Part shown: positions 26,937 to 51,985 of the stretch, one piece after another
How positions within the stretch are numbered: the stretch's first letter is position 1
How the letters are laid out: every line of letters starts with the position of its first letter
Source: a virus
Direction: 5' to 3' (one strand)
Virus record (IMG/VR): IMGVR_UViG_3300032268_001078
Coordinates: 96,001-160,000 of that record
Length of the DNA: 64,000 nt
Position numbers and translations under genes: made by a program
Notes under the pieces: model-generated
What the model was told of the DNA's origin: nothing
The model's database searches: none
What the model saw: the letters and a program-made list of their open reading frames with translations, nothing else

Positions 26937-26941
26937 ATGTT

Positions 26942-26973
26942 ATAAATATAAAAAAAGGCTTGGCAAAAGCCAA
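26942..26973 (-). promoter_or_regulatory. Overlapping class I (26942-26949) and class II (26945-26973) motifs inside the capsid terminator
   Basis: TTGG-CTTTTGCCAAGCCT-TTTTTTATATTTAT, ending 5 nt before the HNH ATG. Confidence 0.6.
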
Positions 26974-27001: not shown

Positions 27002-28690
27002 TTAAACTACATCTAAATCCGCTACTAAGATTTTTCCGTAGTAATCAGGACGGATCATTTTCTTAGCGTATCTTGTCATTATCCCCTTGCGTGGAGTGAA
27101 GGTTTCAGGATCGTAGATAAGAGGAGTCATAATCAATGGAACATATGGAGCATAAACTGCACCAGTTTCCAAGAATTGACCACCTTTATAACCTAATAAA
27201 ATTGTGTTATCTTTGAAGTATGGGTTTTTGTAAACTTTGTAACGACCGTTGATAGCACCAATCTTTTGAACACCAAATGCATATTTCATTGTTTCAGCAT
27301 CAGTATTGTCAGCTGCAAATCCTGGAATTGATTCCAAAATAGTAGCTACTGCTGGAGAAATAACCATGAAATTAGCACCACCACGTAAAGTTCTTTGGTG
27401 GATGATGTTAGAGATTTTTTGCAATTTGATTCCTAAAGTTTGGAACCAAGACATTTGGTTGTAGTAAACACCAGCTGTGTTACTTACAAATGCGTTTTGA
27501 GCTGCGTTGATTTGGTTACCAACTTTTGCAGACCAAAATTCAGTTGTAGCTGCACCTTGCAACAACATACCTAAAATTTCAAGATCAATTTCCATTGAAA
27601 TTTGTTCAGACAACAATGAAGTTAATTCAGCTTCAGCATCCAAGTTTTGGTATGCGTTCAAGTCTTGAGCAAATTCAGGAGTCCATTGAGCTTTCATTTT
27701 ACGAGTTTCAGCAGTAATACTGTCAGAACGTAATTTGATGTTGATTTCAGGGAAAACAATACTTGTGTTTGATTGAGCATTAGGAAAAGCTAAACCACTA
27801 TTGCCATCTTCAAAATCACCAGCATTGAATGGGTTTACTGTAGTTTCTTTAAAGAAGTAAGCAATACCAGCAGTACCGGCAGAAGCAGTAGCAGCTACAC
27901 CAGTAGCAGAAGCAGTTACATACCAATAAACATTTCCGTCAGCTTTAATATTAGTTAATTCAGCCAATACAGTATTTGGAGTAGTTCCAGAACCACTGAT
28001 GTACCAAGCAGAAATTGCAGATAAATCAGCAATAACACCAGAACCAGTAAATGCACTTGAAGCAGAAACTTCAAAGATTTGACCAGCAGCTAAAGAAGCT
28101 GTATAACGAGCATCAAAATTTAATTTAGCGAAATCACCAACTGTAGTTTGAGATAAAGTTTTAGCTTTCAAAGTAACAGAAGCTGAAAATTCGTTACGAG
28201 TGTAACCATAACGACCTTGACCATAGTAACCACCTTCAGCTAAGTTACTGAAGTTACTGTTACCAAATCCAGGTGCTGGTGTACCATATAAAGAATCACC
28301 ACTAGAGAAAGGAGCTTTATTAGTTCCATATTGGAAATCCAAATAGAAGATAAGTCCTGAAGGCATAGACATAGGTTGTACGCTAACAAATTCTTTAGCT
28401 ACAACTTGACCAAAGATCTTACGAATCATTGGTAAAGCAACACCAGCCCATTGGTAACCGTTACCAACCTGGAAACCAGATGCTGGTGAACTTTGAGGGC
28501 CTGATGTATTAGTTTCAACGATAAGTTGTTTAGCTTGGTTTTCCAACAACATAGACATATTAGTCTTGTCATATCCACTCAAACCTTCCAACAAACCAGA
28601 TTTACCCCATTTGCCTGCTAAACGAGCTGCGTCGTTTTGCAAAGACTGCCATGGGTTAGCAGATTCGAGGAGTTGATTAATTGTACTCAT
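27002..28690 (-). CDS. gp23: Major capsid protein (T4 gp23-like)
   Basis: VSVQPMSMPSGLIFYLDF, RKMKAQWTPEFAQDL, YAPYVPL, FTPRKGIMTRYA. Confidence 0.98.
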   Translation of the reverse strand: MSTINQLLESANPWQSLQNDAARLAGKWGKSGLLEGLSGYDKTNMSMLLENQAKQLIVETNTSGPQSSPASGFQVGNGYQWAGVALPMIRKIFGQVVAKEFVSVQPMSMPSGLIFYLDFQYGTNKAPFSSGDSLYGTPAPGFGNSNFSNLAEGGYYGQGRYGYTRNEFSASVTLKAKTLSQTTVGDFAKLNFDARYTASLAAGQIFEVSASSAFTGSGVIADLSAISAWYISGSGTTPNTVLAELTNIKADGNVYWYVTASATGVAATASAGTAGIAYFFKETTVNPFNAGDFEDGNSGLAFPNAQSNTSIVFPEINIKLRSDSITAETRKMKAQWTPEFAQDLNAYQNLDAEAELTSLLSEQISMEIDLEILGMLLQGAATTEFWSAKVGNQINAAQNAFVSNTAGVYYNQMSWFQTLGIKLQKISNIIHQRTLRGGANFMVISPAVATILESIPGFAADNTDAETMKYAFGVQKIGAINGRYKVYKNPYFKDNTILLGYKGGQFLETGAVYAPYVPLIMTPLIYDPETFTPRKGIMTRYAKKMIRPDYYGKILVADLDVV

Positions 28691-28717: not shown

Positions 28718-30100
28718 TTATTTAATTCCAGCTAGTTTTTGCATTCTTGAAATTTGATCATCAGCTTTAATAATTGGTTGGCTTGCTGGGCGACCACCGA
28801 TTACTTTACTAGCAAATGATGTTTTATTTTCTGTTAAAGCTTTTTTGTTAGATGATTTTTTGATAGTTGTTTTCAAAATTTCATAAACATTTTTAGCTTC
28901 GTTTAATGATGTAGCTTTATCAAAAGAACTAACTACATTTACTTTTTGACCTTCAGTTAAACTGTTTGCTTTGAAAATACGATTAACGTAAATCAATTTA
29001 GCGTTTAATAAATTAACTTCGTTTAATTGACCACGAAGAGTTCTGATGGTACGAATGGCTTCTTTCAATTCTTCTTCTTTAGATTCATCTACATCACCTT
29101 TCATCATTTTTTTCTTTTCCATCATAGCTTTGATTTTAGATTTCATAGCTTCTTTCATGTCATCTTCTTCTTCTTTAATTACTTTAGGTCCTTTATATTT
29201 ACCTTTCATAGTAATTGCAGCAAGATTCTTTTGAGGAGCTACTCCACCTGATGTTCCAGCTTTTTTAGCTTCGTCCATTTCTTTTGGTTCACCTTTGTAA
29301 CCTTTACGTTGTTTCATAGCTTCGTAAAGAGAATAAAGTTCTTCTAATTCTTCTTCTTCAGATTTTTTCTTTTTAGGTTTAGATTTAGATTTTTTGTCTT
29401 CTTCACCTTCTTCTTCACCTTCTTCTTCAGTTTCTTCACCTTCCATTTCACCACCTTCAGCGTCAAAGTTGAAATCCATGTTCATGTCTTCTTCACCTCC
29501 CATGTCTTCCATGCCTTCTTCACCACCTAAACCAGCAGCTTCAAGTTCAGCTCTGATGATTTTTTTAAGTTCATCAACTGTAACTTCACCAATTCCTTCA
29601 CTTCCTGAAGCAGCTTCATTTTCCATGTCGAACATTTCGTTCATCATGTCTTCTTCTTCATTTACTTCTTCACCTTCTTTTTCAAGTTCACGTAAGATTT
29701 CTTCAAGATCAAAGTTTTCTTCCATTCCTTCTTCTTCGGAAAGTTCAGAATCCATTTCATACACAGAACCATCACCATCCATGTCTTCTTCTTCAAGAGC
29801 ATTAAATAATTCTTCTAAGTCGATTTCTTCTTCAAGACTAGTGTTGTCATCAGGATCATAATCCATTCCTTCTTCTACTTCATTTTCTTCATTCATAGAA
29901 ATTAGATCTAAATTACGATCTGAATTGTAAATTTCTTCCATCTCATCTTTTTCATCATCTCTCATACGTTTTTCAAACATAGCTGAAATACGTGGTGCAA
30001 ATGATTCTTCAAGAGAGGCTTTTGCATTGGCAACGGCAGCTTCACGTAGAGCTTTAGCGTCAGCAATGGCTTCTTCGAATAATTTTTTGTTATTTGACAT
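28718..30100 (-). CDS. Prohead scaffold / core protein
   Basis: Very Glu-rich linker, coiled coils, EVNLLNAKLIY, C-terminal RMQKLAGIK; lies between protease and capsid genes. Confidence 0.88.
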   Translation of the reverse strand: MSNNKKLFEEAIADAKALREAAVANAKASLEESFAPRISAMFEKRMRDDEKDEMEEIYNSDRNLDLISMNEENEVEEGMDYDPDDNTSLEEEIDLEELFNALEEEDMDGDGSVYEMDSELSEEEGMEENFDLEEILRELEKEGEEVNEEEDMMNEMFDMENEAASGSEGIGEVTVDELKKIIRAELEAAGLGGEEGMEDMGGEEDMNMDFNFDAEGGEMEGEETEEEGEEEGEEDKKSKSKPKKKKSEEEELEELYSLYEAMKQRKGYKGEPKEMDEAKKAGTSGGVAPQKNLAAITMKGKYKGPKVIKEEEDDMKEAMKSKIKAMMEKKKMMKGDVDESKEEELKEAIRTIRTLRGQLNEVNLLNAKLIYVNRIFKANSLTEGQKVNVVSSFDKATSLNEAKNVYEILKTTIKKSSNKKALTENKTSFASKVIGGRPASQPIIKADDQISRMQKLAGIK

Positions 30101-30193: not shown

Positions 30194-30211
30194 ATAAATA
30201 TGTATAAATAC
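30194..30211 (-). promoter_or_regulatory. Tandem class I motifs (ATATTTAT plus near-copy GTATTTAT)
   Basis: 10-bp spaced pair upstream of the scaffold/capsid operon leader. Confidence 0.7.
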
Positions 30212-30241: not shown

Positions 30242-30874
30242 TTATCTTATACAACAAACTCCGGTTTGGCTACAAATAATATCTGTAACTAACGAATGGA
30301 TTTTATTGTAAGGATTAGTATTTGTATTATAATTATAATTTTTAGATTCATTTAATCCACCTACTGGTCTCATATAAGCACCATGTGTAGATGGCGTACT
30401 TACAAAATCCCAACAAACTAAATCAAAATCATCTTGTACTTCAACTGTGTTTTCATTCATGGGTGTTGTTGAACCCATTCCACGAGATGAAATACCTACT
30501 GTAATATTATTTAAAAATAAATGTTTTAAAATATTTCCTGAAGGAGTATCTAAAACTTCTATGCGACCAAATAAATCATCACCGTCCCACCATAATTTTT
30601 GAATATTATGACAAACATTTTTAAGATTAATTACTGATGATTCAGGATGATCTAATTCTCCTAATGCTCTATTTTGAGCAATAGGTCCTTGAATGTATTT
30701 TGCAACTTCTCTTTCTAGAATTCCTTTAGGGTAAATACGGCCATTTTCATTTTTAGCATTAGCCCGTTGTACAATACCTTCTACAATTAAATTTTTAGAA
30801 GGATTCATCCTTGCCTCATGTAAATTTTGGGCAATAGGTTTAAAAGGAATATATTCTATTAAAATTTGAGACAT
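30242..30874 (-). CDS. gp21: Prohead core protease (T4 gp21-like)
   Basis: NENGRIYP, ALGELDHP, VGISSRGMGS, WDFVSTPSTHGA. Confidence 0.96.
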   Translation of the reverse strand: MSQILIEYIPFKPIAQNLHEARMNPSKNLIVEGIVQRANAKNENGRIYPKGILEREVAKYIQGPIAQNRALGELDHPESSVINLKNVCHNIQKLWWDGDDLFGRIEVLDTPSGNILKHLFLNNITVGISSRGMGSTTPMNENTVEVQDDFDLVCWDFVSTPSTHGAYMRPVGGLNESKNYNYNTNTNPYNKIHSLVTDIICSQTGVCCIR

Positions 30875-31917: not shown

Positions 31918-32070
31918 TTATCCTTGTCCTATAGAAATTTTTTTATAATTTTTTGAACCTTTATTTTTAGACATTTTTGTTTTGGCATGAATACCTTTAC
32001 GTTTGGTTTTTGTCTTTAATTTAAATATTCTAACAGGTCCACTGCTTTTTGCTTTAACTTTTGCTGCCAT
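31918..32070 (-). CDS. Small highly basic protein, 50 aa (not in the ORF track)
   Basis: MAAKVKAKSSGPVRIFKLKTKTKRKGIHAKTKMSKNKGSKNYKKISIGQG; fills the gap between two head genes. Confidence 0.7.
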   Translation of the reverse strand: MAAKVKAKSSGPVRIFKLKTKTKRKGIHAKTKMSKNKGSKNYKKISIGQG

Positions 32071-32779
32071 TTTTTATTTCTTTTATATTTTTATATAACG
32101 TTTTTAATTCATTCATTAATTGATCTACTATACCTTCAGTTCGTTTATTGTATTGAACATTATTGGTTTCACTTAATTCTACTTTTAACTTACTTGTGTA
32201 ATTAGCAATTTTGTTTACTTCTTGAAGTTTTCGTTTAATTTCTTTCATAGCAACATGCATTTGTGTAGAAGGTTTAACTACTTCAGTTTGTTTCTTAAAT
32301 TGATTATAACGAGTTTCATTCAATGCTTTATTGATTATTTTATTGTAATCAGCCATTGAAAGAGTTTTACCAGTTTCACTTAATCTAATAGTATTCTCAG
32401 CCACATTGTGTAAATCCATGTCAGTTTTCGCATCTTCTCGCGCGTATTCTAACAATCTAATAAATAATGGTACATCTACCACGATTTTATCGGGTTTGTT
32501 GGTAGCTTCCCACAAATCTTTAGCGTCTATTCTATCAGATGGTTTAGCTTTAGTATAACCTATACCAGTATATGCTGTAATGTCTTTTGCTCCTGGAGTG
32601 TATGCTGAAGGAACAGATCCTTTTTTATTTTGTCCTTGATATGTTGGATTTGATTCTTTAATGGTTTTATTTCCATTATGTTGATACCCATTTCCTACAG
32701 AAAAACTAGCATTTTGTTCTTTTATTTGTTTTTGAACAAACTTACGAATTTTTTCTTGTAATTCGGTTTTAGTTCTCAT
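32054..32779 (-). CDS. Putative internal head protein, 241 aa
   Basis: Module VDVPLFIRLLEYAREDAKTDMDLH flanked by LWE and LNE; head module. Confidence 0.55.
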   Translation of the reverse strand: MRTKTELQEKIRKFVQKQIKEQNASFSVGNGYQHNGNKTIKESNPTYQGQNKKGSVPSAYTPGAKDITAYTGIGYTKAKPSDRIDAKDLWEATNKPDKIVVDVPLFIRLLEYAREDAKTDMDLHNVAENTIRLSETGKTLSMADYNKIINKALNETRYNQFKKQTEVVKPSTQMHVAMKEIKRKLQEVNKIANYTSKLKVELSETNNVQYNKRTEGIVDQLMNELKTLYKNIKEIKNGSKS

Positions 32780-33624
32780 GATACTTTTTTAATTTCACTT
32801 AATAATTCATAATATTGAAGTAAGTTAATTAAATGTTCTTCTTTTGGATTTTCATTTTTAAGAACAGGTTTAATTAATTTAATAGATTCATTTAATTTAA
32901 TTTGTGTAGCTAAATCTGGTATTCTTTCAGTATAACTAGTCAAATTTAATTTTAAATAATTAAAGTGATTATTAATAATATTTTTTAATTTAATTGAATC
33001 ATTAATATTATTAATGTATTCTTTTAAAATAAGTTTTTGTTGTGAAGTAAAACTATTATAACGTTCATTGAATTTTTCAATTAGTATTTTATATGTAAGA
33101 ATACGAATATCTGCTGATTCATTTAAAAATAATTTAATGTTTTCATTTTCTCCATTAATTATTTCTTTTTTAGTTAAATGTTCTAATAAAGTAATTTTAT
33201 TATCAATAACTTGTTTTGGATCTGTATATGTTTTTGAACGGTAGTGTTCTAATAAAGTATAAACAGCAGCAGAGGTTTTATAATTAGAAATTTTATTTCT
33301 AAAGAAATTATCTAAATCATAATGTCTTTTAATATCTTTAACTAAATTATATTTTTCTTCATTTATTTTTTTAGTATTTATTTTGATAGCAGATTCTGCT
33401 AGAGTTTGAATAATGGTTTCAGCTTTAGAATCAGTTAGTTTTTCACTGTTATTTACTAAATTATAAAGACGTTGTTCTTTAGCTAATTCAGAATTAGTAA
33501 AGTGTTTTTTCATTATTTTTACAGCAGGTGAATCACCTTTAGTCAACACATCATTAGTTACTTGGCGTACTAACAGCTCAAATATAATACCAGTGTTCTT
33601 TACCTTTGAATGTTTTATTAACAT
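32776..33624 (-). CDS. Hypothetical protein downstream of portal, 282 aa
   Basis: HSKVKNTGIIFELLVRQ; long helical ORF with upstream motif. Confidence 0.6.
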   Translation of the reverse strand: MLIKHSKVKNTGIIFELLVRQVTNDVLTKGDSPAVKIMKKHFTNSELAKEQRLYNLVNNSEKLTDSKAETIIQTLAESAIKINTKKINEEKYNLVKDIKRHYDLDNFFRNKISNYKTSAAVYTLLEHYRSKTYTDPKQVIDNKITLLEHLTKKEIINGENENIKLFLNESADIRILTYKILIEKFNERYNSFTSQQKLILKEYINNINDSIKLKNIINNHFNYLKLNLTSYTERIPDLATQIKLNESIKLIKPVLKNENPKEEHLINLLQYYELLSEIKKVS

Positions 33625-33650: not shown

Positions 33651-35615
33651 TTAACTAGGAGACATAATGTTGTTTTCACTTAACAAACCATCATCGTCTT
33701 TTGATTCAAATAAGTTTATTTTTCTCATTCCACTTAAACCACTCAACATATTTTTATTTTGAAGATAAACAGTTTGGGTACTTTCTAATGCTAAAGGTGA
33801 ACCACCTTTATATTGTGTTTTTCCAAGTTTATTTTCACCTTCTTCTGGAGCTGAGTATTCTTTGCGGCCTAAGCGATCTTTCCCAAATGGACTATCTTGA
33901 GTATCAATAACACTAGATTTCTTTTCAGGTCTACCAGGTAACCTAACTTTATTAGGTTGATTTTCATCATATCCTGTTGGTACTTGTTCTGGTGCTTTTG
34001 GAGGTCCTGTATAGCGACCTGGTCCATATATTGTTGCTAATATATGAGGTGTACCATATGCTTGTCCTGTTTCTGCTGGATCGTTTCCTTCTTCTTCTAC
34101 TTGTTTTAATCTAAATAAGCGTTTTTTATCTTCAATTACTAAATCTCTCATTTCATCTACTTCATCTTCACTAAAATGAAATACATTATCATAAATCCAA
34201 TCACTAGGCATTAAGCCAGATTCTTGAACTGATTTAGCTAAGTCAACTTTTTCTTTCCATAATGCAACTCTTTCTTGATCATAGATAATACTTGGTGTAG
34301 TTAATGAAAGTTCAAAATTTGCTAATGCTTCTCCATCGTATCCTTGAACATATAAATGAACCAACGCAATTTTTGTAAGTTCACTTACTAATATTCGTTG
34401 TAAACGTTCTACTGTACGAGCAAATCTAATGTCTTCAGCAGCTAATGTAGCTTTACCGGTTAAATCTTTTTCATAACCCATAAATGCTTTAGGAACTTTA
34501 AGAGCGGCAAATAATTTGTCTCTTAAATATTCTACATCTGTAATACCATCATAGTTTAATCCAGGAACATTATCAATTCTAGTAGTTGTATCATTACCAC
34601 GAACTGGAATATAATAATCTTCCATCATATTTTGAACATTATATTTTAAATTATATTGGCCTGTTTGGTTATCCACAAATGGAGTTTTTTTCAATTTACT
34701 AACCATTTGTTGCATATAATTGTCTACTTCTGCTGGAGGAATAGCACCAATATTAATATAAAATAATCTTCTGTCTGGAGCGCGAGTAATTCTATGAATT
34801 AACATAGCATCTTCCATCAACATATATTGTTTAAATAATTTACGAGCAGGCTCTAAATAACTTCTACCATAAGGTAAATAGTTAACATCACTTAATAATC
34901 TAAAGTGAGCCATTTCATAATTTTCAAAATAAATTCCTTCTTCTACATCTTTATTTCCATAACTAGCCCAACCTGCTGCACTAGAAGCACCAGATCCAGC
35001 TGCTGGATCATATTTAAATCTAACATAAGATGGATTGTCTAATTTAATACCTTCTTCTCTTAAAATATTAAAACTACTAAATGGAATAACATTATAAACA
35101 CCAAATTTTTCAGCAATTTCTAATTTTAAATAAAAATCACCGTATTTAAACATGTTTCTAGCCCATGACCATAAATTAAATTCAACATTCAATACATCAT
35201 AAAACAAGTTATAAAGAATTTTTTGAATATTTTCATCACTAGAACGAATATGAAGCATTTCTCCACTTTCATTTCGTAAAGTACACTCATCTGCTAAAAT
35301 ATCTAATGCTGATGCTACAATAGCATCACTATCCATTGCTTCATAATCAGAATATAATTGAGGTCTGATTGAAGGATAATTAATAGCGGTTTGACCAGCA
35401 TATGCTGCTACTCCTGATGTGGTGTAAATTCTATTGAATCTATCTACTACAGAGTTAGTTTGAAGTACCCCCTGAGATTGGATTCTATCAGTATCAATTA
35501 CTTTTAGTTGATCTCCTCCTACATTTCGTATTACTACGTCTGCTGAGAATAATTTCTTTAATCTTCCAAATATACCTGTGGTAGGTGTTTGTGGATTTAT
35601 TTGTTGTTCTGCCAT
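33651..35615 (-). CDS. gp20: Portal protein (T4 gp20-like)
   Basis: SYLEPARKLFKQYMLMEDAMLIHRITRAPDRRLFYI; DVEYLRDKLFAALKVP. Confidence 0.97.
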   Translation of the reverse strand: MAEQQINPQTPTTGIFGRLKKLFSADVVIRNVGGDQLKVIDTDRIQSQGVLQTNSVVDRFNRIYTTSGVAAYAGQTAINYPSIRPQLYSDYEAMDSDAIVASALDILADECTLRNESGEMLHIRSSDENIQKILYNLFYDVLNVEFNLWSWARNMFKYGDFYLKLEIAEKFGVYNVIPFSSFNILREEGIKLDNPSYVRFKYDPAAGSGASSAAGWASYGNKDVEEGIYFENYEMAHFRLLSDVNYLPYGRSYLEPARKLFKQYMLMEDAMLIHRITRAPDRRLFYINIGAIPPAEVDNYMQQMVSKLKKTPFVDNQTGQYNLKYNVQNMMEDYYIPVRGNDTTTRIDNVPGLNYDGITDVEYLRDKLFAALKVPKAFMGYEKDLTGKATLAAEDIRFARTVERLQRILVSELTKIALVHLYVQGYDGEALANFELSLTTPSIIYDQERVALWKEKVDLAKSVQESGLMPSDWIYDNVFHFSEDEVDEMRDLVIEDKKRLFRLKQVEEEGNDPAETGQAYGTPHILATIYGPGRYTGPPKAPEQVPTGYDENQPNKVRLPGRPEKKSSVIDTQDSPFGKDRLGRKEYSAPEEGENKLGKTQYKGGSPLALESTQTVYLQNKNMLSGLSGMRKINLFESKDDDGLLSENNIMSPS

Positions 35616-45722: not shown

Positions 45723-46043
45723 TTATTTTTCTCTTATTAATAACTCTCCTAACACCTCTAAACGTCCAACTTCTCGTTGAAATTCAATTGGTGTCATATT
45801 TAATGATATTTTTTTTAATGTTTGTTCAAATTCCTTTTCAGCAACTTCTTTATTAAATTTGCTTTCAGTAGCTTTTTTATAGTAAGGAGCTTTAACTTTA
45901 AAGTGATGCCATGTTAATAAAGCTAAACCACCTTTTTCTTTAGCATTTGAAGCTATTTTAGCAGCACCTTCACCACGTTTTTTGGCAAACTCTTCAAAAG
46001 TTTCTTTCTTTATTTCTAATAATAATTTTATCAAGTTTATCAT
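45723..46043 (-). CDS. Putative internal head protein
   Basis: N-terminal MINLIKLLLE. Confidence 0.55.
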   Translation of the reverse strand: MINLIKLLLEIKKETFEEFAKKRGEGAAKIASNAKEKGGLALLTWHHFKVKAPYYKKATESKFNKEVAEKEFEQTLKKISLNMTPIEFQREVGRLEVLGELLIREK

Positions 46044-46927
46044 TATCTACCTACAAGAAGAGATGTTTTAGTGCTATCAGGTTGGCCAGACATATCTGGA
46101 TTATAATTTGGATTTCTTTGTTTATATCCTACTAACGGCGTTGAACGTCCTGAACTATCAATAACCTTAATTGTTATTTGTCTGTTTTTAATAGTAGGAA
46201 GTAATTTTTTCAAAAATTCAACAAAGTCTCTTCTATCAGGGAATAATTCAGCTATGTCTCTTTCTTCAGAGTTTTTATTAACATTATATAAATAGTATCC
46301 TGATTTTAATTCAATAGGACCCTTAACCTTTTGAGAGTATTTTAATTCAACATATGGTTTTAAGAATCTAAATACAGATACTTTGTATGTTGTAGATTTT
46401 TCTATTTTAGTACCGTCTTCTTGATCATATATTTTAGTTCTTGTTATATAGACATTATTATATCTGTCTTTCTCATCTACTTTAATTTTCTTAAATATTA
46501 AATCTTTATCTGCACCTGTAGTTAAATCACCAAATTCTGAAGTGTCTCCAAGATCAAAAACATTGTCATTTGGTTCAACTTCTGGTGTTGTTACTTTTTT
46601 AGTTACATCACCCCTTAATGGAATTAAAATTCCTGCTTGTTTTAAGTCAGGAATAAAAGCTCTATTAATAGCTTGTCTACTAGTATAACCAAAAACAGTC
46701 ATTAAATCAGTAGACGTTAAAAAATCTTTATATTGAAGTTTTTCTAAACCTGATTTTAGTGTTTTATATCCTCTAGATGAGTTGTATTGATGAGTATTTT
46801 GAAAGTTAGTTGCTTTTGTTTCCCAATCATCTGCCAAAGTAAACATTTCTGTCATTCTAGGCATTTCTTCTAGATTGCGTCTTACAGCTTCATTTAGTAC
46901 TTTTACTATAAATTTTTTAATATCCAT
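46043..46927 (-). CDS. Putative internal head protein, possible HTH region
   Basis: MDIKKFIVKVLNEAVRRNLEEM leader. Confidence 0.55.
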   Translation of the reverse strand: MDIKKFIVKVLNEAVRRNLEEMPRMTEMFTLADDWETKATNFQNTHQYNSSRGYKTLKSGLEKLQYKDFLTSTDLMTVFGYTSRQAINRAFIPDLKQAGILIPLRGDVTKKVTTPEVEPNDNVFDLGDTSEFGDLTTGADKDLIFKKIKVDEKDRYNNVYITRTKIYDQEDGTKIEKSTTYKVSVFRFLKPYVELKYSQKVKGPIELKSGYYLYNVNKNSEERDIAELFPDRRDFVEFLKKLLPTIKNRQITIKVIDSSGRSTPLVGYKQRNPNYNPDMSGQPDSTKTSLLVGR

Positions 46928-47472: not shown

Positions 47473-47942
47473 TAGTATCCTGGATCTTCTTGACCGCCTG
47501 TAATAATATTTTTAGGATTTTTGTTTATTTTTTGATTATTAACTTCTTCACCATAAAGATAACCATAAACTGATTGTAAATAGTCTTCAGCTTTAGTTAA
47601 TTTAGCTTGAACCCATGCATCTAATTGTTCTTCTTGATCAATCATGTCACATAACCCTGTAGATAATCGTTTAATATTAGAAAGTTGACTGTAAGCCATA
47701 TCAGCTTCATCATCTTTTTGCATCCAATCGTCTTCATATAATTTTTCTTCTAAATCAGTAGCATCATGGTGCATTTTAACAGGTTGTTCATCCATGTTTT
47801 TAGCAATAGCCATCCCACGTTTTTTTTCATACGGTGATATTATATCATCCTTGTTTAAGTCTGATTTTTGTCTATTGAATGGAACTGCTTCATTCATTGC
47901 TTGTTTTAAGCGCCATTCGTGTATATCAAAATTATCCTTCAT
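47472..47942 (-). CDS. Putative internal head protein, modular
   Basis: AMNE / NMDE / KLYE separate DLNKDDIISPYEKKRG and AWVQAKLTKAEDYL modules. Confidence 0.55.
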   Translation of the reverse strand: MKDNFDIHEWRLKQAMNEAVPFNRQKSDLNKDDIISPYEKKRGMAIAKNMDEQPVKMHHDATDLEEKLYEDDWMQKDDEADMAYSQLSNIKRLSTGLCDMIDQEEQLDAWVQAKLTKAEDYLQSVYGYLYGEEVNNQKINKNPKNIITGGQEDPGY

Positions 47943-48573
47943 TTGCGAATTCTGTTAAAGAGTTATGTAATTTTACTTTTGTGAATTGGTGAGATATTTT
48001 TTCTACTGCTTGTTTTAGTTTTTCTTTACTGTATTTTGAGTTTTTATCTAATGGGAATTCGATATTAACTGCGTCTTTAGAGTAATAAACCAAAGGTAGT
48101 TTTTGTTTTTTCAATGTATTTAATGCTTTATCACGTAATTGTTCAGTATCAAATACTAAACCTATATTTAACTCAGCTTCTGTTGATTTTGTTTTATCTT
48201 TTTTTTCGTCTTTTTCAAAAATACCAGCTAATTCTTGCATTCTTTTAATTTCATTTGCTGAACCAGCAGGTAAACCTTCACCAGATGCGCGACCGGGTTG
48301 GCTATTATTATAATTATTCCAAACTGAATCAATACTCATCTCAAAATCTTCTTCAGGCCCCAGATCAAATTCTTCTGGTTCTATTAAACCAATATGAAAT
48401 TTTTCTAAGTATGGTTCTACTTGTCCACTTGCCATAAATTCAGTTACTTCATCTGCATCTCCATCAAAATACTGAACTAAGTCCTCATAAAGATTATCAA
48501 AATCCTCATCAGTCCATTTCATGATAATATTCTTATCACGATATTTGAAGAATATTCTGTCTAAATCGTTCAT
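47932..48573 (-). CDS. Putative internal head protein with scaffold-like RMQELAGI motif
   Basis: EIKRMQELAGIFE matches the scaffold C-terminus RMQKLAGIK. Confidence 0.6.
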   Translation of the reverse strand: MNDLDRIFFKYRDKNIIMKWTDEDFDNLYEDLVQYFDGDADEVTEFMASGQVEPYLEKFHIGLIEPEEFDLGPEEDFEMSIDSVWNNYNNSQPGRASGEGLPAGSANEIKRMQELAGIFEKDEKKDKTKSTEAELNIGLVFDTEQLRDKALNTLKKQKLPLVYYSKDAVNIEFPLDKNSKYSKEKLKQAVEKISHQFTKVKLHNSLTEFANEG

Positions 48574-48941: not shown

Positions 48942-48955
48942 AATTATTATTTGTA

Positions 48956-48963
48956 ATAAATAT
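48956..48963 (-). promoter_or_regulatory. Class I motif ATATTTAT
   Basis: 14 nt upstream of start 48941. Confidence 0.65.
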
Positions 48964-49541
48964 TATTGTATTTTTTCTTTCTGTAATTTAATCCAATCTT
49001 TTACTTCTTTAACATGTTCTGGTGTTAAACTATTTCCAGTCCATTCATTTACTTCACCGTCTTCAGTTAAAGTTTTACTAAATCCTAATTTAATAAAATC
49101 ATCAAATTCCATTTCTATATTATTTAACATTTGATTTAAATTATTAGTATGTAAGTTTTTAGCATATTCTTCAAATTTACCTTCTAACTTTAAATTACTT
49201 TCCATTTTAGCAATACATGTAGGACATTTATGTAGTAAATTATACATGTATTTTACATAATCACTTTTGTGATTTAATAGTCCATTACATTCAGGACAAG
49301 TAAGAGGCATATTAAATTGTTTTTTAAACTTACTTAATTTAGGAATACTTCTTTTAATACCATTTTTAATAGTCCAAGTTTTACCTTGTTCTTCCCATGT
49401 GTCTCCTTCTTTTCTTTGAATATTATTTTCATAACCTATTTGACTTTGTGTTTTATCGCCATGTTTTTTCATAACAATATTTCGCATTCTTTGTACTTCA
49501 CGCTCAGTAAACTGGCGATTTAGTAATGTTTCTTTATTCAT
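48963..49541 (-). CDS. Hypothetical protein with Zn-finger-like CxxC pairs
   Basis: CPEC...CPTC; EGDTWEEQGKTWTIKNGIK. Confidence 0.6.
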   Translation of the reverse strand: MNKETLLNRQFTEREVQRMRNIVMKKHGDKTQSQIGYENNIQRKEGDTWEEQGKTWTIKNGIKRSIPKLSKFKKQFNMPLTCPECNGLLNHKSDYVKYMYNLLHKCPTCIAKMESNLKLEGKFEEYAKNLHTNNLNQMLNNIEMEFDDFIKLGFSKTLTEDGEVNEWTGNSLTPEHVKEVKDWIKLQKEKIQ

Positions 49542-51967
49542 AACTCGTATTTGTGTAATTTTTCTATTGATTCTTTTGAATTTTCTGGGTTGTTTTTTAT
49601 TCCTATCCCACCAGCTTGAGTAAATTCTGTTGTGTTTTTACTCATATCATCTATTAAGATATAACCTTCTTTAGCTTCTGTGTGTTTATCTTTTGCTTGT
49701 TTAAATACTCTGCGATTTTGTGGAATAGATGTATGTTTATTTAACCATTCATTTTTACCTTTTTTAGCGTCTCCATTAGGATCTAAACCAGGACTTGATA
49801 ATACCCAAACTTCAATACCATTTTTAGGAGCCATTTTCATAACATAATTATAAAGTTCTTTTCCTCCAGGATTCCAATTCATTCCTGACCAGTATGTATC
49901 TGTTCCTTTGTTAATTATATCCCAAGCTTTTTTAGCGCCATATTTTCCAATGTATTCTTTAAAATCTAATTTTTCGTCATTGTATTTTTTAAACTGCTCG
50001 TCAAAATCAGCTAATACTCCATCTAAATCAAAGTAAATTCTTGTAATTTTTGGATTTTTTTTTTCATTTAATTTAGGAGTATTGTCATGTCCACATTTAT
50101 GACACACATACATATCTTTTCCTCCATCTTTCTTTTTCCAAGTCCAACCACAATTATCACAAGTTATAGTTTTTTTTGTTTCAGATTCGTTTAACACACC
50201 AATTTTATAAATGTCTGGGTTTTGTTTGCCATAGTCTCTCATAATAATACCAGCAATACTATTAGCATCATTTTCATGGTCACTGCCTGTTTCACCACTA
50301 TTTGGTTTAAGTAAACCTATTTCATTTTGTTTAGCATGAACTAATTCATGAGCTAATGTTCTATAAATGTCAACAATATTCCTATTAGAAGGATTAATGA
50401 GTATATGATGATCAAAGGGAACATAAGCCCCAAAGCTAGGTTGTTCCTCTCCGAATTCGTATCGGATTTCCAACGTTGGCGGGTTTTGAATTTGGAGTTC
50501 TTGACAGGCATAAGACATAAAATTATTTAAAAGTGATTGGATATTATCTTGAGATGATTCATTCAATGAAATTGTTTTATCAATCAACTCATTTTTTAAA
50601 TCATTCAATTTATCTAAATAACCTGTGTTTCTTAAATCTTTAAATGCTAAATTTTCAACTGAGTATTCTCCGTTTTTATCTAATCCAGCTTGTCTAAAAT
50701 TCTTTAAACGTTCTTGTATTGTTTTTATTTGTTCTATTGATTTTTCAGGATTTTTATTTCCTGTTTTTAATAATTGATTTATTTTTTCTTTAAAAGGACG
50801 AGATTTTTTCTTAATATTTCCATCAGGAATATTTATAGCTTCATATTCTGGTTTCTTTTCCCATTTATCATTTAATACTGAATAAACTCCTGTAGATGTG
50901 TGTTTTTCATTTAGGTTTTGAACATAAATTTCTATAGGTTGTTTACCTAGTTTTGGATCATGAGCATTATTCCAATTATTTTTTGCTGAGTCAAACCATT
51001 TCTTTACCATTTCTGGGTTGGGAAATTTATTAAAATCAATAACAATGTGTAAATCTATATCAGATAAATTAGAATAATTGTAATTAGCAGATGAACCTGT
51101 TAATACAACATCATCAAATGGTTCAGGAATATCTAAACCATCCCAAAACATTGTAGCAATTTTTAATAATAATTCTTTAACTTGTGGGTCTAATTTGTCA
51201 CCATCAAATAACATAGGATTAAGTTGGTTATTATTTTTATATTCTTCTAACCAAACCCAATTTTTTTCTTTATTATAGTTATTATCCTCTTGTAATGATT
51301 TAGGATTAATTGGATTTATTTTTAGAATTTTTAAAAAATCATCAAATAATCCTTTATTAATAAGAGATTCAGGCATTAATGCTTTTAAATAATCATATGT
51401 GTTGTTATAATCATTTAAAGCTATTGTATATTCTTTAGTTCCTTTTTGTTGTTTACGTAGTTTATTAAAAGTTTCTTTTAATTTACTTATTGTTCCAACA
51501 AATTCAGCTTCACCAACGTCTTCTCCATCTTTATCAGTAAAATGATCATTTATAACTTGACTATAAACACGATCACTAAATTTTTCTTGTAGTTTATTTA
51601 CATACCCATTAGTTGTTTCTTCTTGAGATCCAGCAACATATGCTTCATTTTCTAAATTAGCAAAAAAGCTAAATAAGTCTTTAATAGGAGATGCATTTTT
51701 AGCAATAGCAATTTTTACCTTTGGATTTGGATTAGATTCTAAATATAAATCCCAAATAGCTTTACTTTGTTGTGGAGTAACATTGTTTTTAGTATCGTTT
51801 CCTATTAAAACAATAACTTGATTTATATAGTTTTTTCCAGCTAATGATTCAACAGCATTAAAATGTCCTTTATTAGGTGGTTTAAAAGCCCCTGGATAAT
51901 AACATGATAAAGGAGGATTTGCTATTTGTTCTCCTATTTGTTTCCCTATTTGTTCTATATTTACCAT
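49538..51967 (-). CDS. Five-domain polyvalent protein: HIGH-type nucleotidyltransferase, Pol-beta nucleotidyltransferase, HExxH metallopeptidase, Zn ribbon, HAD 5'-nucleotidase
   Basis: YPGAFKPPNKGH; LTGSSANYNY...SDIDLH; TLAHELVHAKQ; CDNC...CHKC; YFDLDGVLADF...LIDD. Confidence 0.85.
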   Translation of the reverse strand: MVNIEQIGKQIGEQIANPPLSCYYPGAFKPPNKGHFNAVESLAGKNYINQVIVLIGNDTKNNVTPQQSKAIWDLYLESNPNPKVKIAIAKNASPIKDLFSFFANLENEAYVAGSQEETTNGYVNKLQEKFSDRVYSQVINDHFTDKDGEDVGEAEFVGTISKLKETFNKLRKQQKGTKEYTIALNDYNNTYDYLKALMPESLINKGLFDDFLKILKINPINPKSLQEDNNYNKEKNWVWLEEYKNNNQLNPMLFDGDKLDPQVKELLLKIATMFWDGLDIPEPFDDVVLTGSSANYNYSNLSDIDLHIVIDFNKFPNPEMVKKWFDSAKNNWNNAHDPKLGKQPIEIYVQNLNEKHTSTGVYSVLNDKWEKKPEYEAINIPDGNIKKKSRPFKEKINQLLKTGNKNPEKSIEQIKTIQERLKNFRQAGLDKNGEYSVENLAFKDLRNTGYLDKLNDLKNELIDKTISLNESSQDNIQSLLNNFMSYACQELQIQNPPTLEIRYEFGEEQPSFGAYVPFDHHILINPSNRNIVDIYRTLAHELVHAKQNEIGLLKPNSGETGSDHENDANSIAGIIMRDYGKQNPDIYKIGVLNESETKKTITCDNCGWTWKKKDGGKDMYVCHKCGHDNTPKLNEKKNPKITRIYFDLDGVLADFDEQFKKYNDEKLDFKEYIGKYGAKKAWDIINKGTDTYWSGMNWNPGGKELYNYVMKMAPKNGIEVWVLSSPGLDPNGDAKKGKNEWLNKHTSIPQNRRVFKQAKDKHTEAKEGYILIDDMSKNTTEFTQAGGIGIKNNPENSKESIEKLHKYEL

Positions 51968-51977
51968 TACTCAATTA

Positions 51978-51985
51978 ATAAATAT
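51978..51985 (-). promoter_or_regulatory. Class I motif ATATTTAT
   Basis: 10 nt upstream of the polyprotein start. Confidence 0.65.

Follow-up and report, generated by a model that had tools for sequence, protein, structure and literature searches.

A five-module phage polyprotein with a head-protease-type motif at every joint, probably delivered as capsid cargo

Our analysis of a 64,000-nucleotide stretch of viral DNA, referred to here as the window (bases 96001-160000 of the 179.7-kb IMG/VR virus record IMGVR_UViG_3300032268_001078), revealed an 809-residue polyprotein composed of an NMNAT/PPAT-like HIGH nucleotidyltransferase, a Pol-beta nucleotidyltransferase (NTase), an HExxH zincin, a CxxC zinc ribbon and a 5'(3')-deoxyribonucleotidase-like HAD domain, with the tripeptide L-[NQ]-E at each of the four joints. 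The source genome is that of a distant T4-like phage; its window encodes proteins matching Pfam Gp23 (27002-28690), Portal_T4 (33651-35615) and Peptidase_S77 (30242-30874), and the capsid protein has its nearest relative, at 64%, in Flavobacterium phage vB_FspM_immuto. The motif of the phage's own head protease recurs at every one of these flexible joints, and we therefore propose that the polyprotein probably becomes capsid cargo, is cleaved into its modules and enters the host along with the DNA. An original prediction, made from the letters of this stretch, had pointed to the motif at the junctions and read the chain as packaged cargo that the capsid maturation protease would cut into enzymes directed at host targets or defence signals; its observation is confirmed, and its interpretation is partly supported.

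Modules and joints of the polyprotein

In an AlphaFold2 model built from a 78-sequence alignment (mean predicted local distance difference test score, pLDDT, 89.4), the pLDDT falls below 50 in four segments only, residues 224-242, 468-472, 592-597 and 633-636, and these are the four L-[NQ]-E joints. Three of the segments start at the motif leucine, the fourth one residue earlier. The joint positions first assigned from the sequence, residues 225-227, 468-470, 592-594 and 633-635, are all correct, and the domain boundaries of the model, suggested at that time as a check, coincide with them. The four (L/I)-x-E sites are thus predicted to sit in flexible, exposed segments of the chain.

Could the motif simply reflect composition? 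The polyprotein contains six L[NQ]E sites where 0.69 are expected from its composition, and at least six were obtained in 1 of 20,000 shuffles (P ~5e-5); the general pattern [IL]xE is unenriched across the whole chain (11 seen, ~9 expected). The non-random features are the placement of the motif at the joints and the N or Q at P2, between the leucine at P3 and the glutamate at P1. The flanks differ among the four joints, which have L-[NQ]-E alone in common. Five such sites had been claimed; the four joints and the one at 352-354 stand, and a sixth, KLQE at 126-128 within a helix, had been overlooked. Both intradomain sites are poorly conserved, the former being LNE in only 4 of 121 homologues and the latter retaining its glutamate in about three quarters of them. 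The whole genome has 56 occurrences of L[NQ]E, the expectation being 31.7, and no protein of the genome has more sites than the polyprotein. The next richest include two head-core proteins near the portal gene (32054-32779 and 32776-33624) and a scaffold-like protein (28718-30100), and the motif is also found at the C-terminus of the prohead protease itself.

The five domain calls of the original prediction stand in the light of Pfam, phrog, Foldseek and motif evidence, with the zincin and the HIGH domain to be regarded as putative, being called by fold and motif below curated cut-offs. For the HIGH domain, Foldseek points to the NMNAT/NaMNAT/PPAT fold (E 6e-4 to 4e-3, TMt 0.63-0.66); by sequence it matches PPAT in the PDB weakly (E 0.029) and Pfam CTP_transf_like (PF01467) under the gathering cut-off (E 0.099), and its motif reads NKGH (PPNKGH) where most homologues have HKGH (PPHKGH). 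The NTase module, in which the GS...DxD motif takes the form GSSANYNYSNLSDIDLH, matches phrog_36119 over residues 244-468 (E 5e-43) and scores 14.3 bits with NTP_transf_2 (PF01909) against a cut-off of 21, which homologues pass at 21.3-23 bits; its fold matches, to AAD(9)/AadA, CD-NTases and MNT, are weak (E 3e-3). Sequence support for the zincin core (residues 476-576) is likewise weak, with phrog_87 metallo-protease at 7.6e-5 and DUF6782 at 0.002, under the Pfam cut-off, as are its fold matches to abylysin, selecase, Wss1 and IrrE (E 0.03-0.13, TMt ~0.6). Residues 644-796 of the HAD domain pass Pfam NT5C (PF06941) at 25.5 bits (gathering cut-off 24.8), and the domain matches phrog_2643 (E 2.6e-19) and, by Foldseek, the human and mouse enzymes cdN/mdN (2jao/2i7d; E 1e-5). 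Sequence-only PDB searches with the four large domains yielded nothing useful beyond the weak PPAT match, Foldseek returned no match at E <= 1e-3 for a model of NTase plus zincin, and a DNA search of the phage collection gave no match.

Module shuffling at the joints

Homologues were drawn from a search of 5.8 billion proteins, which gave 304 matches; the best 120 of the 304 were used, and 16 module seeds were mapped onto 121 proteins. The 16 module types are arranged in 29 architectures with 39 ordered junction types, and these architectures are mosaic, shuffled as cassettes at the joints. The zinc ribbon is optional in the family: HIGH-NTase-zincin-HAD, which lacks it, is the commonest architecture (58 proteins), and the five-module order with the zinc ribbon, as here, occurs in 18. 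Comparison of different module orders had been proposed as a check on the original prediction, and [LIM]xE is indeed kept within a linker of 10-25 residues at every joint, in all 39 junction types, as compared with 17% of random 15-residue windows of the same proteins. The one apparent exception is a mapping overlap, where the raw sequence reads R-LNE-E. Fifteen unrelated modules all terminate in the joint motif.

Large insertions relative to this protein all fall at residues 226, 595 and 635-638. At the HIGH-to-NTase joint the motif is found in 112 of 112 cases, and relatives insert DUF5661 and M6 modules exactly there; joint 2 carries it in 120 of 120 family members. Joint 3 is the chief insertion point for extra modules, with the motif at all zincin-to-next-module joints, and the same is true of all joints from the zinc ribbon to the next module (joint 4). 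Natural short forms stop where the zincin ends, on the joint or shortly ahead of it, and none reaches the joint glutamate. At the N-terminus, the IGE that ends the 13-residue candidate leader is shared by 115 of 121 homologues, IAE takes its place in 2 others, and a second lineage has another leader, MKSLVKSLITPF-LAE, in the same position. End-points of BLAST high-scoring segment pairs, with a median distance to the motif glutamate of 7 residues versus 22 at random, were a noisy measure of breakpoints because the linkers themselves are homologous, and were superseded by the explicit module mapping. The extra modules of the relatives, namely a ParB-like module recognised by a DGxHR motif, a second zincin and M4-M11, have no Pfam match, and their names were assigned by eye only.

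The zinc-ribbon module, CDNCGWTWK..GG.DLY.CHKCGHDN, is also mobile on its own, being fused to GNAT-like domains, other zincins and uncharacterised modules in relatives whose loci were taken from IMG/VR (L012, L013, L028, L029, L034 and L036). An [LI]xE usually precedes it and often follows it.

A full HMMER scan gave 8127 wider relatives, in many of which the NTase is the first domain of a protein of 500-2288 residues. In relatives at ~35% identity the module ends D-x-x-L-S-[LI]-x-E, with P2 and P1'-P10' nearly free; since P3 and P1 persist whereas P2 and the linker beyond the motif vary, we conclude that selection acts on P3 and P1. Distant relatives with at least 40 residues after the NTase have the motif (L/I at P3, E at P1) in 117 of 128 cases. 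Of the 9 proteins with the NTase in last place, 8 end at ...LSL or nearby, without x-E, and therefore the leucine is part of the domain and the glutamate occurs only with a following domain. Proteins that start with the NTase begin M-[ND]-[IL]-x-E in 76 of 88 cases, and of 7 virus records with such proteins and a completeness of at least 90%, 6 encode Peptidase_S77, a count that has no negative control set.

What else could explain such joints? The chain may be an uncut cytoplasmic enzyme of nucleotide or NAD metabolism, derived from fusion of neighbouring genes, with the joints representing domain caps or recombination leftovers. Longer strings such as LNESKQSN are common to many linkers, as for recombination joints, and the assignment of the leucine to the preceding domain would suit a cap. 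We consider this explanation rather unlikely, given that the joints of this protein share the tripeptide but not its flanks, that the drift at 35% identity spares just the two residues, that the glutamate appears only when another domain follows, and that modules unrelated to each other all end in the motif.

Head protease, virion homologues and a model for delivery

In T4, the internal proteins IPI-III and Alt form a capsid cargo provided with a capsid-targeting sequence, and gp21 cleaves after (L/I)-x-E. The gp21-like prohead protease of the window is the proposed cutter of the polyprotein; it had been named as the capsid maturation protease, an assignment borne out by its Peptidase_S77 match and by the alignment of T4 cleavage sites with [LI]xE in the capsid protein and in the protease. 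In pairwise alignment, LTE/AEIGG of T4 gp23 (the slash follows the motif glutamate), where we take gp21 to cut after Glu65 (LTE/A), pairs with QL-IVE/TNTSG in the capsid protein of this phage, which also aligns with two more [LI]xE sites upstream in the gp23 delta domain. The C-terminal E-ITE/SQ of T4 gp21 aligns with GG-LNE/SK of the protease here, located ~33 residues before its C-terminus, which suggests that the enzyme trims itself as in T4. Because the gp23 site aligns with I-V-E, the S77 protease of this phage very probably keeps the [LI]-x-E rule. Cleavage of T4 gp23 by gp21 is documented with the site unspecified (T4 record; PMC9026906), and the ten-residue T4 capsid-targeting sequence is processed through residues 8 and 10, with Asp at 10 blocking cutting (PMC9026906).

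Homologues of the first two modules, at superfamily level for the HIGH domain, have been detected in purified virions. The CsCl-purified virion proteome of the cultured T4-like cyanophage S-CREM2 includes ORF154, ORF155 and ORF156 (PMC10665884, Table 3), and ORF154 is a cytidylyltransferase, termed an NMNAT homologue there (PMC10665884). ORF156 is a free-standing NTase with 35% identity over 221 residues (E 2e-43) to residues 250-468 of the polyprotein; it ends ...KDLSLK, and the N-termini of ORF154 and ORF156 read MKNFSSF-LTE/A and MKKL-ISE/L. The S-CREM2 gene order, HIGH-type transferase then NTase, equals the module order here, and the related cyanophage S-CRM01 has the same order a few genes from its primase gene; among the S-CRM01 neighbours g126, g124, g123 and g122, none has an HExxH. 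NMNAT-like proteins in the virion proteomes of S-CBWM1, S-SZBM1 and S-SCSM1 are cited in the portion of PMC10665884 drawn on here. By analogy, the most economical account would be that enzymes packaged separately in other T4-like phages, all of them preceded by an [LI]xE leader of their own, are fused here with the motif between them.

In conjunction with the joints and their conservation, we propose the following model, in which we infer packaging, cutting and injection of this polyprotein as well as the targets of its enzymes. The polyprotein would be expressed from a late-type promoter and would enter the prohead, possibly via its N-terminal 13-residue leader or through another contact. The Peptidase_S77 prohead protease would then cut after the glutamate of [LI]-x-E in each exposed linker, releasing a HIGH nucleotidyltransferase of ~24 kDa, a Pol-beta NTase of 28 kDa, a zincin of 14 kDa, a ribbon of 4.6 kDa and a nucleotidase of 20 kDa. 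The folded pieces would remain in the head, be injected with the DNA, and may act on nucleotides, NAD-type cofactors or proteins ahead of phage gene expression. On balance, we judge it moderately probable that the polyprotein is polyvalent-type capsid cargo, cut at its joints by the head protease and injected with the DNA.

A number of observations weigh against this model. The polyprotein has no clear T4-like capsid-targeting sequence, and its residues 1-13 are modelled as part of a first-domain helix (AlphaFold2 helix 4-16, pLDDT ~84). The gene lies beside those of a primase and an exonuclease, ~17 kb from the protease gene and outside the head module. The motif leucine is partly structural, since a lone NTase also ends ...LSL, and one relative has a proline at P1' of a joint (LNE-P). 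The fusion is absent from the cultured phages of the searched collection, where single domains alone match, and the annotation given to NT5C homologues that stand alone in related phages is that of ordinary enzymes of nucleotide metabolism. As to the virion evidence, the HIGH domain and ORF154 share the PPHKGH region only (hhalign probability 59%), and the link is therefore at superfamily level; by profile comparison, the HIGH domain and the cyanophage cytidylyltransferase could not be shown to be orthologous. In addition, abundant non-structural proteins can co-purify with virions, as the S-CREM2 authors warn (PMC10665884). Finally, the zincin, with an intact HExxH, is present in all 121 homologues and might itself be the cutter.

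This last point leads to a second explanation, self-processing, in which the embedded zincin cuts the joints in cis or in trans, whether in the cytoplasm, within the head or once injected. Besides its universal presence, the zincin directly follows the NTase in most distant relatives, the most conserved joint (LS-[LI]xE) is immediately 5' of it, and release of the other domains of polyvalent proteins by their MPTase domains is argued for by Iyer et al. 2017 (PMC5512222, in the portion drawn on here). It is nevertheless the least probable of the explanations considered, and we give it little weight. The motif is that of the T4-type protease rule and, in this genome, marks head proteins devoid of a zincin as well as the C-terminus of the protease; zinc-ribbon-GNAT proteins of relatives have the same flanking motifs and no zincin; and the virion homologues of S-CREM2 possess [LI]xE leaders, with HExxH missing from the S-CRM01 neighbours listed above. 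The nearest fold matches of the zincin, minigluzincins and Wss1, are weak, and no Glu-specific cutting rule was found for these peptidases, which are not known to have one.

The genomic setting bears in both directions on the possibility of an uncut metabolic enzyme. The position beside the primase and exonuclease genes would suit it, as would the separate, neighbouring cyanophage genes for the HIGH nucleotidyltransferase and the NTase close to primase, and the free-standing NT5C found as an 'auxiliary metabolic' gene in the phages immuto and HTVC008M. It is countered by the detection of two free-standing homologues in virions and by the sequence ATATTTAT, common to structural genes, which precedes the polyprotein gene. 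Capsid cargo cut by the head protease remains our preferred reading.

How does the proposed cargo relate to known systems? Polyvalent proteins, the processing of T4 cargo and multi-site processing in giant phages are known already. With T4 cargo it would share the Peptidase_S77 enzyme, the tripeptide rule, enzymes loaded in advance and injected, and a short N-terminal leader ending in the motif, which is here a proposed one. In T4, however, every cargo protein is encoded by its own gene and is cut behind a short N-terminal leader, whereas four internal sites would here yield five folded pieces, with no evident T4-like targeting sequence. Polyvalent proteins, which occur in phages and conjugative elements, are single polypeptides with 2-15 effector-type domains that are unrelated to one another (Iyer, Burroughs, Anand, de Souza and Aravind 2017, PMC5512222, in the part drawn on here). 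Like them, the chain described here joins unrelated enzyme domains, a zincin-like metallopeptidase included, in mosaic architectures, and the delivery with DNA and processing into units predicted for them in that part of the article are the same as proposed here. Release is ascribed there to the embedded peptidase, and that part gives neither a joint motif nor a link to the prohead protease; moreover, the NTase family here (phrog_36119) is phage-borne with a helical C-terminal subdomain, unlike those of polyvalent proteins. ORF154 and ORF156 of S-CREM2 (PMC10665884) resemble the polyprotein in the NTase homologue, the HIGH-family nucleotidyltransferase with PPHKGH and the gene order, but each has a gene of its own and lacks an attached zincin, zinc ribbon or HAD module. 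In the giant phages phiKZ, 201phi2-1 and SPN3US, a diverged homologue of gp21 cleaves ejection proteins or proteins of the inner body after Glu, at several sites in each (PMC9026906); those cuts have few other determinants and mostly remove propeptides rather than separate recognisable enzymes.

We speculate that [LI]-x-E joints could be a general building rule in phages with a gp21-type protease, a broader idea to which we assign a little less than an even chance. Modules ending in a joint would be spliced into capsid-delivered polyproteins, the set of modules being changeable and the head protease separating them, and the NAD and nucleotide enzymes, the peptidase and the ParB-like DGxHR modules of relatives would act against nucleotide-based host immunity at injection. 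In the literature searches made and the passages drawn on here, no statement was found of a prohead-protease motif at the joints of polyvalent proteins or of module shuffling there. If the joints are cut, one gene would supply an exchangeable set of ready enzymes that arrives together with the phage DNA, and the head protease would release cargo as well as process the shell. The rule, if true, would join polyvalent proteins and the processing of T4 internal proteins in one testable statement, make cargo predictable by sequence for thousands of T4-like and giant phages that have not been cultured, suggest that NAD and nucleotide enzymes are counter-defence tools of the first minute, and be usable for loading chosen proteins into T4-type capsids in laboratory strains.

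Gene context, upstream motifs and leaders

The features discussed are collected in Table 1. The gene had been assigned to 49538-51985; the ORF is real, and positions 51968-51985 of that span are the 17-nt spacer. On its 5' side lie the PD-(D/E)XK exonuclease and primase genes, and on its 3' side the gene of a 192-residue CxxC zinc-ribbon protein, the ATG of which overlaps the polyprotein stop codon (ATGA, 49538-49541), with small acidic proteins encoded beyond it. The pair formed by the polyprotein gene and the 192-residue CxxC gene is syntenic in the relatives L002 and L003, where an additional ATPase-like gene (phrog_2071) overlaps the polyprotein start.

Table 1. Features of the polyprotein gene and associated genes (window positions)
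Feature	Position	Strand	Basis or remark
Major capsid protein	27002..28690	(-)	Pfam Gp23 E 3e-75
Prohead protease, Peptidase_S77, gp21-like	30242..30874	(-)	PF03420 E 8e-33; phrog_207 E 6e-54
Polyprotein ORF	49538..51967	(-)	809 aa plus stop
HAD 5'(3')-deoxyribonucleotidase-like domain, residues 636-809	49541..50062	(-)	DLDGV (649-653), DD motifs
Joint 4, L-N-E, residues 633-635	50063..50071	(-)	
CxxC...CxxC zinc ribbon, ~residues 595-632	50072..50185	(-)	Weak Pfam zinc-ribbon matches
Joint 3, L-N-E, residues 592-594	50186..50194	(-)	
Small HExxH zincin (putative), ~residues 471-591	50195..50557	(-)	HELVH and downstream ENDAN glutamate
Joint 2, L-N-E, residues 468-470	50558..50566	(-)	
Pol-beta-type nucleotidyltransferase and helical C-terminal subdomain, ~residues 243-467	50567..51241	(-)	GS...DxD
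Joint 1, L-Q-E, residues 225-227	51287..51295	(-)	
HIGH-type nucleotidyltransferase (putative), ~residues 14-224	51296..51928	(-)	PPNKGH; Foldseek
N-terminal 13 residues ending I-G-E, candidate capsid-targeting/processing leader	51929..51967	(-)	
17-nt spacer with promoter-like motif, non-coding	51968-51985		Between exonuclease gene and polyprotein start
'Late-type' promoter-like motif ATATTTAT	51978..51985	(-)	18 nt 5' of polyprotein start codon

The late-type motif ascribed to the gene in the original prediction is real. ATATTTAT is found 12-35 nt 5' of 48 of the 235 genes, mostly structural ones, and is enriched 16-fold within 60 nt upstream of genes. The copy at -18 of the polyprotein gene overlaps the final base of the exonuclease stop codon, and the relative L002 has one in the same syntenic place, right after the exonuclease gene. 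The T4 late promoter TATAAATA, considered as the late motif, was rejected, being unenriched (26 seen, 21 expected); the enriched coding-strand motif is ATATTTAT.

Three classes of upstream motif appear to be present genome-wide, with examples at 26941-26948, 30203-30210 and 48942-48962 of the window. The first is ATATTTAT(TA), with the 48 genes mentioned above; the second, TTTGTGTAATAAGTATAA, is 5' of ~15 small genes at the ends of the record, in clusters that are presumably early; the third is a hairpin followed by TTATTATATTAT and precedes, for example, the primase gene. The three classes look like a three-stage promoter programme.

An internal-protein cluster had been said to adjoin the polyprotein gene. 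Leaders of the L-x-E type nearby do no more than suggest such a cluster. ORFs with leaders of ~7-13 residues ending in L-x-E lie at 45723-46043 and 46043-46927 of the window and, outside it, at record positions 168419-169756, 170934-171323 and 90711-92591; the leader sequences are MINLIKLLLE, MDIKKFIVKVLNE, MIKLKNLLNE/S, MIKLTNILTE and MKKLLNE. These leaders resemble T4 capsid-targeting sequences and may mark the actual internal proteins of this phage. The 13-residue leader of the polyprotein is unlike the MIKLxxLLxE-type leaders of the other ORFs.

A further short sequence, RMQKLAGIK, forms the C-terminus of the scaffold-like protein (28718-30100), and [KR]MQxLAG[IL] recurs at residue 111 of a 213-residue protein (47932-48573) and at residue 11, after the MKKLLNE leader, of a 626-residue protein (record positions 90711-92591). 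It is conceivable that [KR]MQxLAG[IL] is a portable capsid-docking tag. The RMQxLAGI scaffold-type tag was not found in the polyprotein.

Leaders of a similar kind were seen in two phages with NTase homologues. In Maribacter phage Molly_1 (L047, 1941-3708), each of three consecutive genes starts with a short leader that closes with L-x-E (MKTGKIKT-LIE, MNLKT-LVE and MKLRQEEIK-LDE), one of these genes being a free-standing NTase homologue, gp026; the trio looks like a small cluster of capsid-cargo genes in a non-T4 family. In the uncultured 636-kb phage LR756504 (L042, 3989-4774), the free-standing NTase homologue begins MKSKVLK-LNE-FVLK-LNE-F; its leader is duplicated and has two sites of the protease type.

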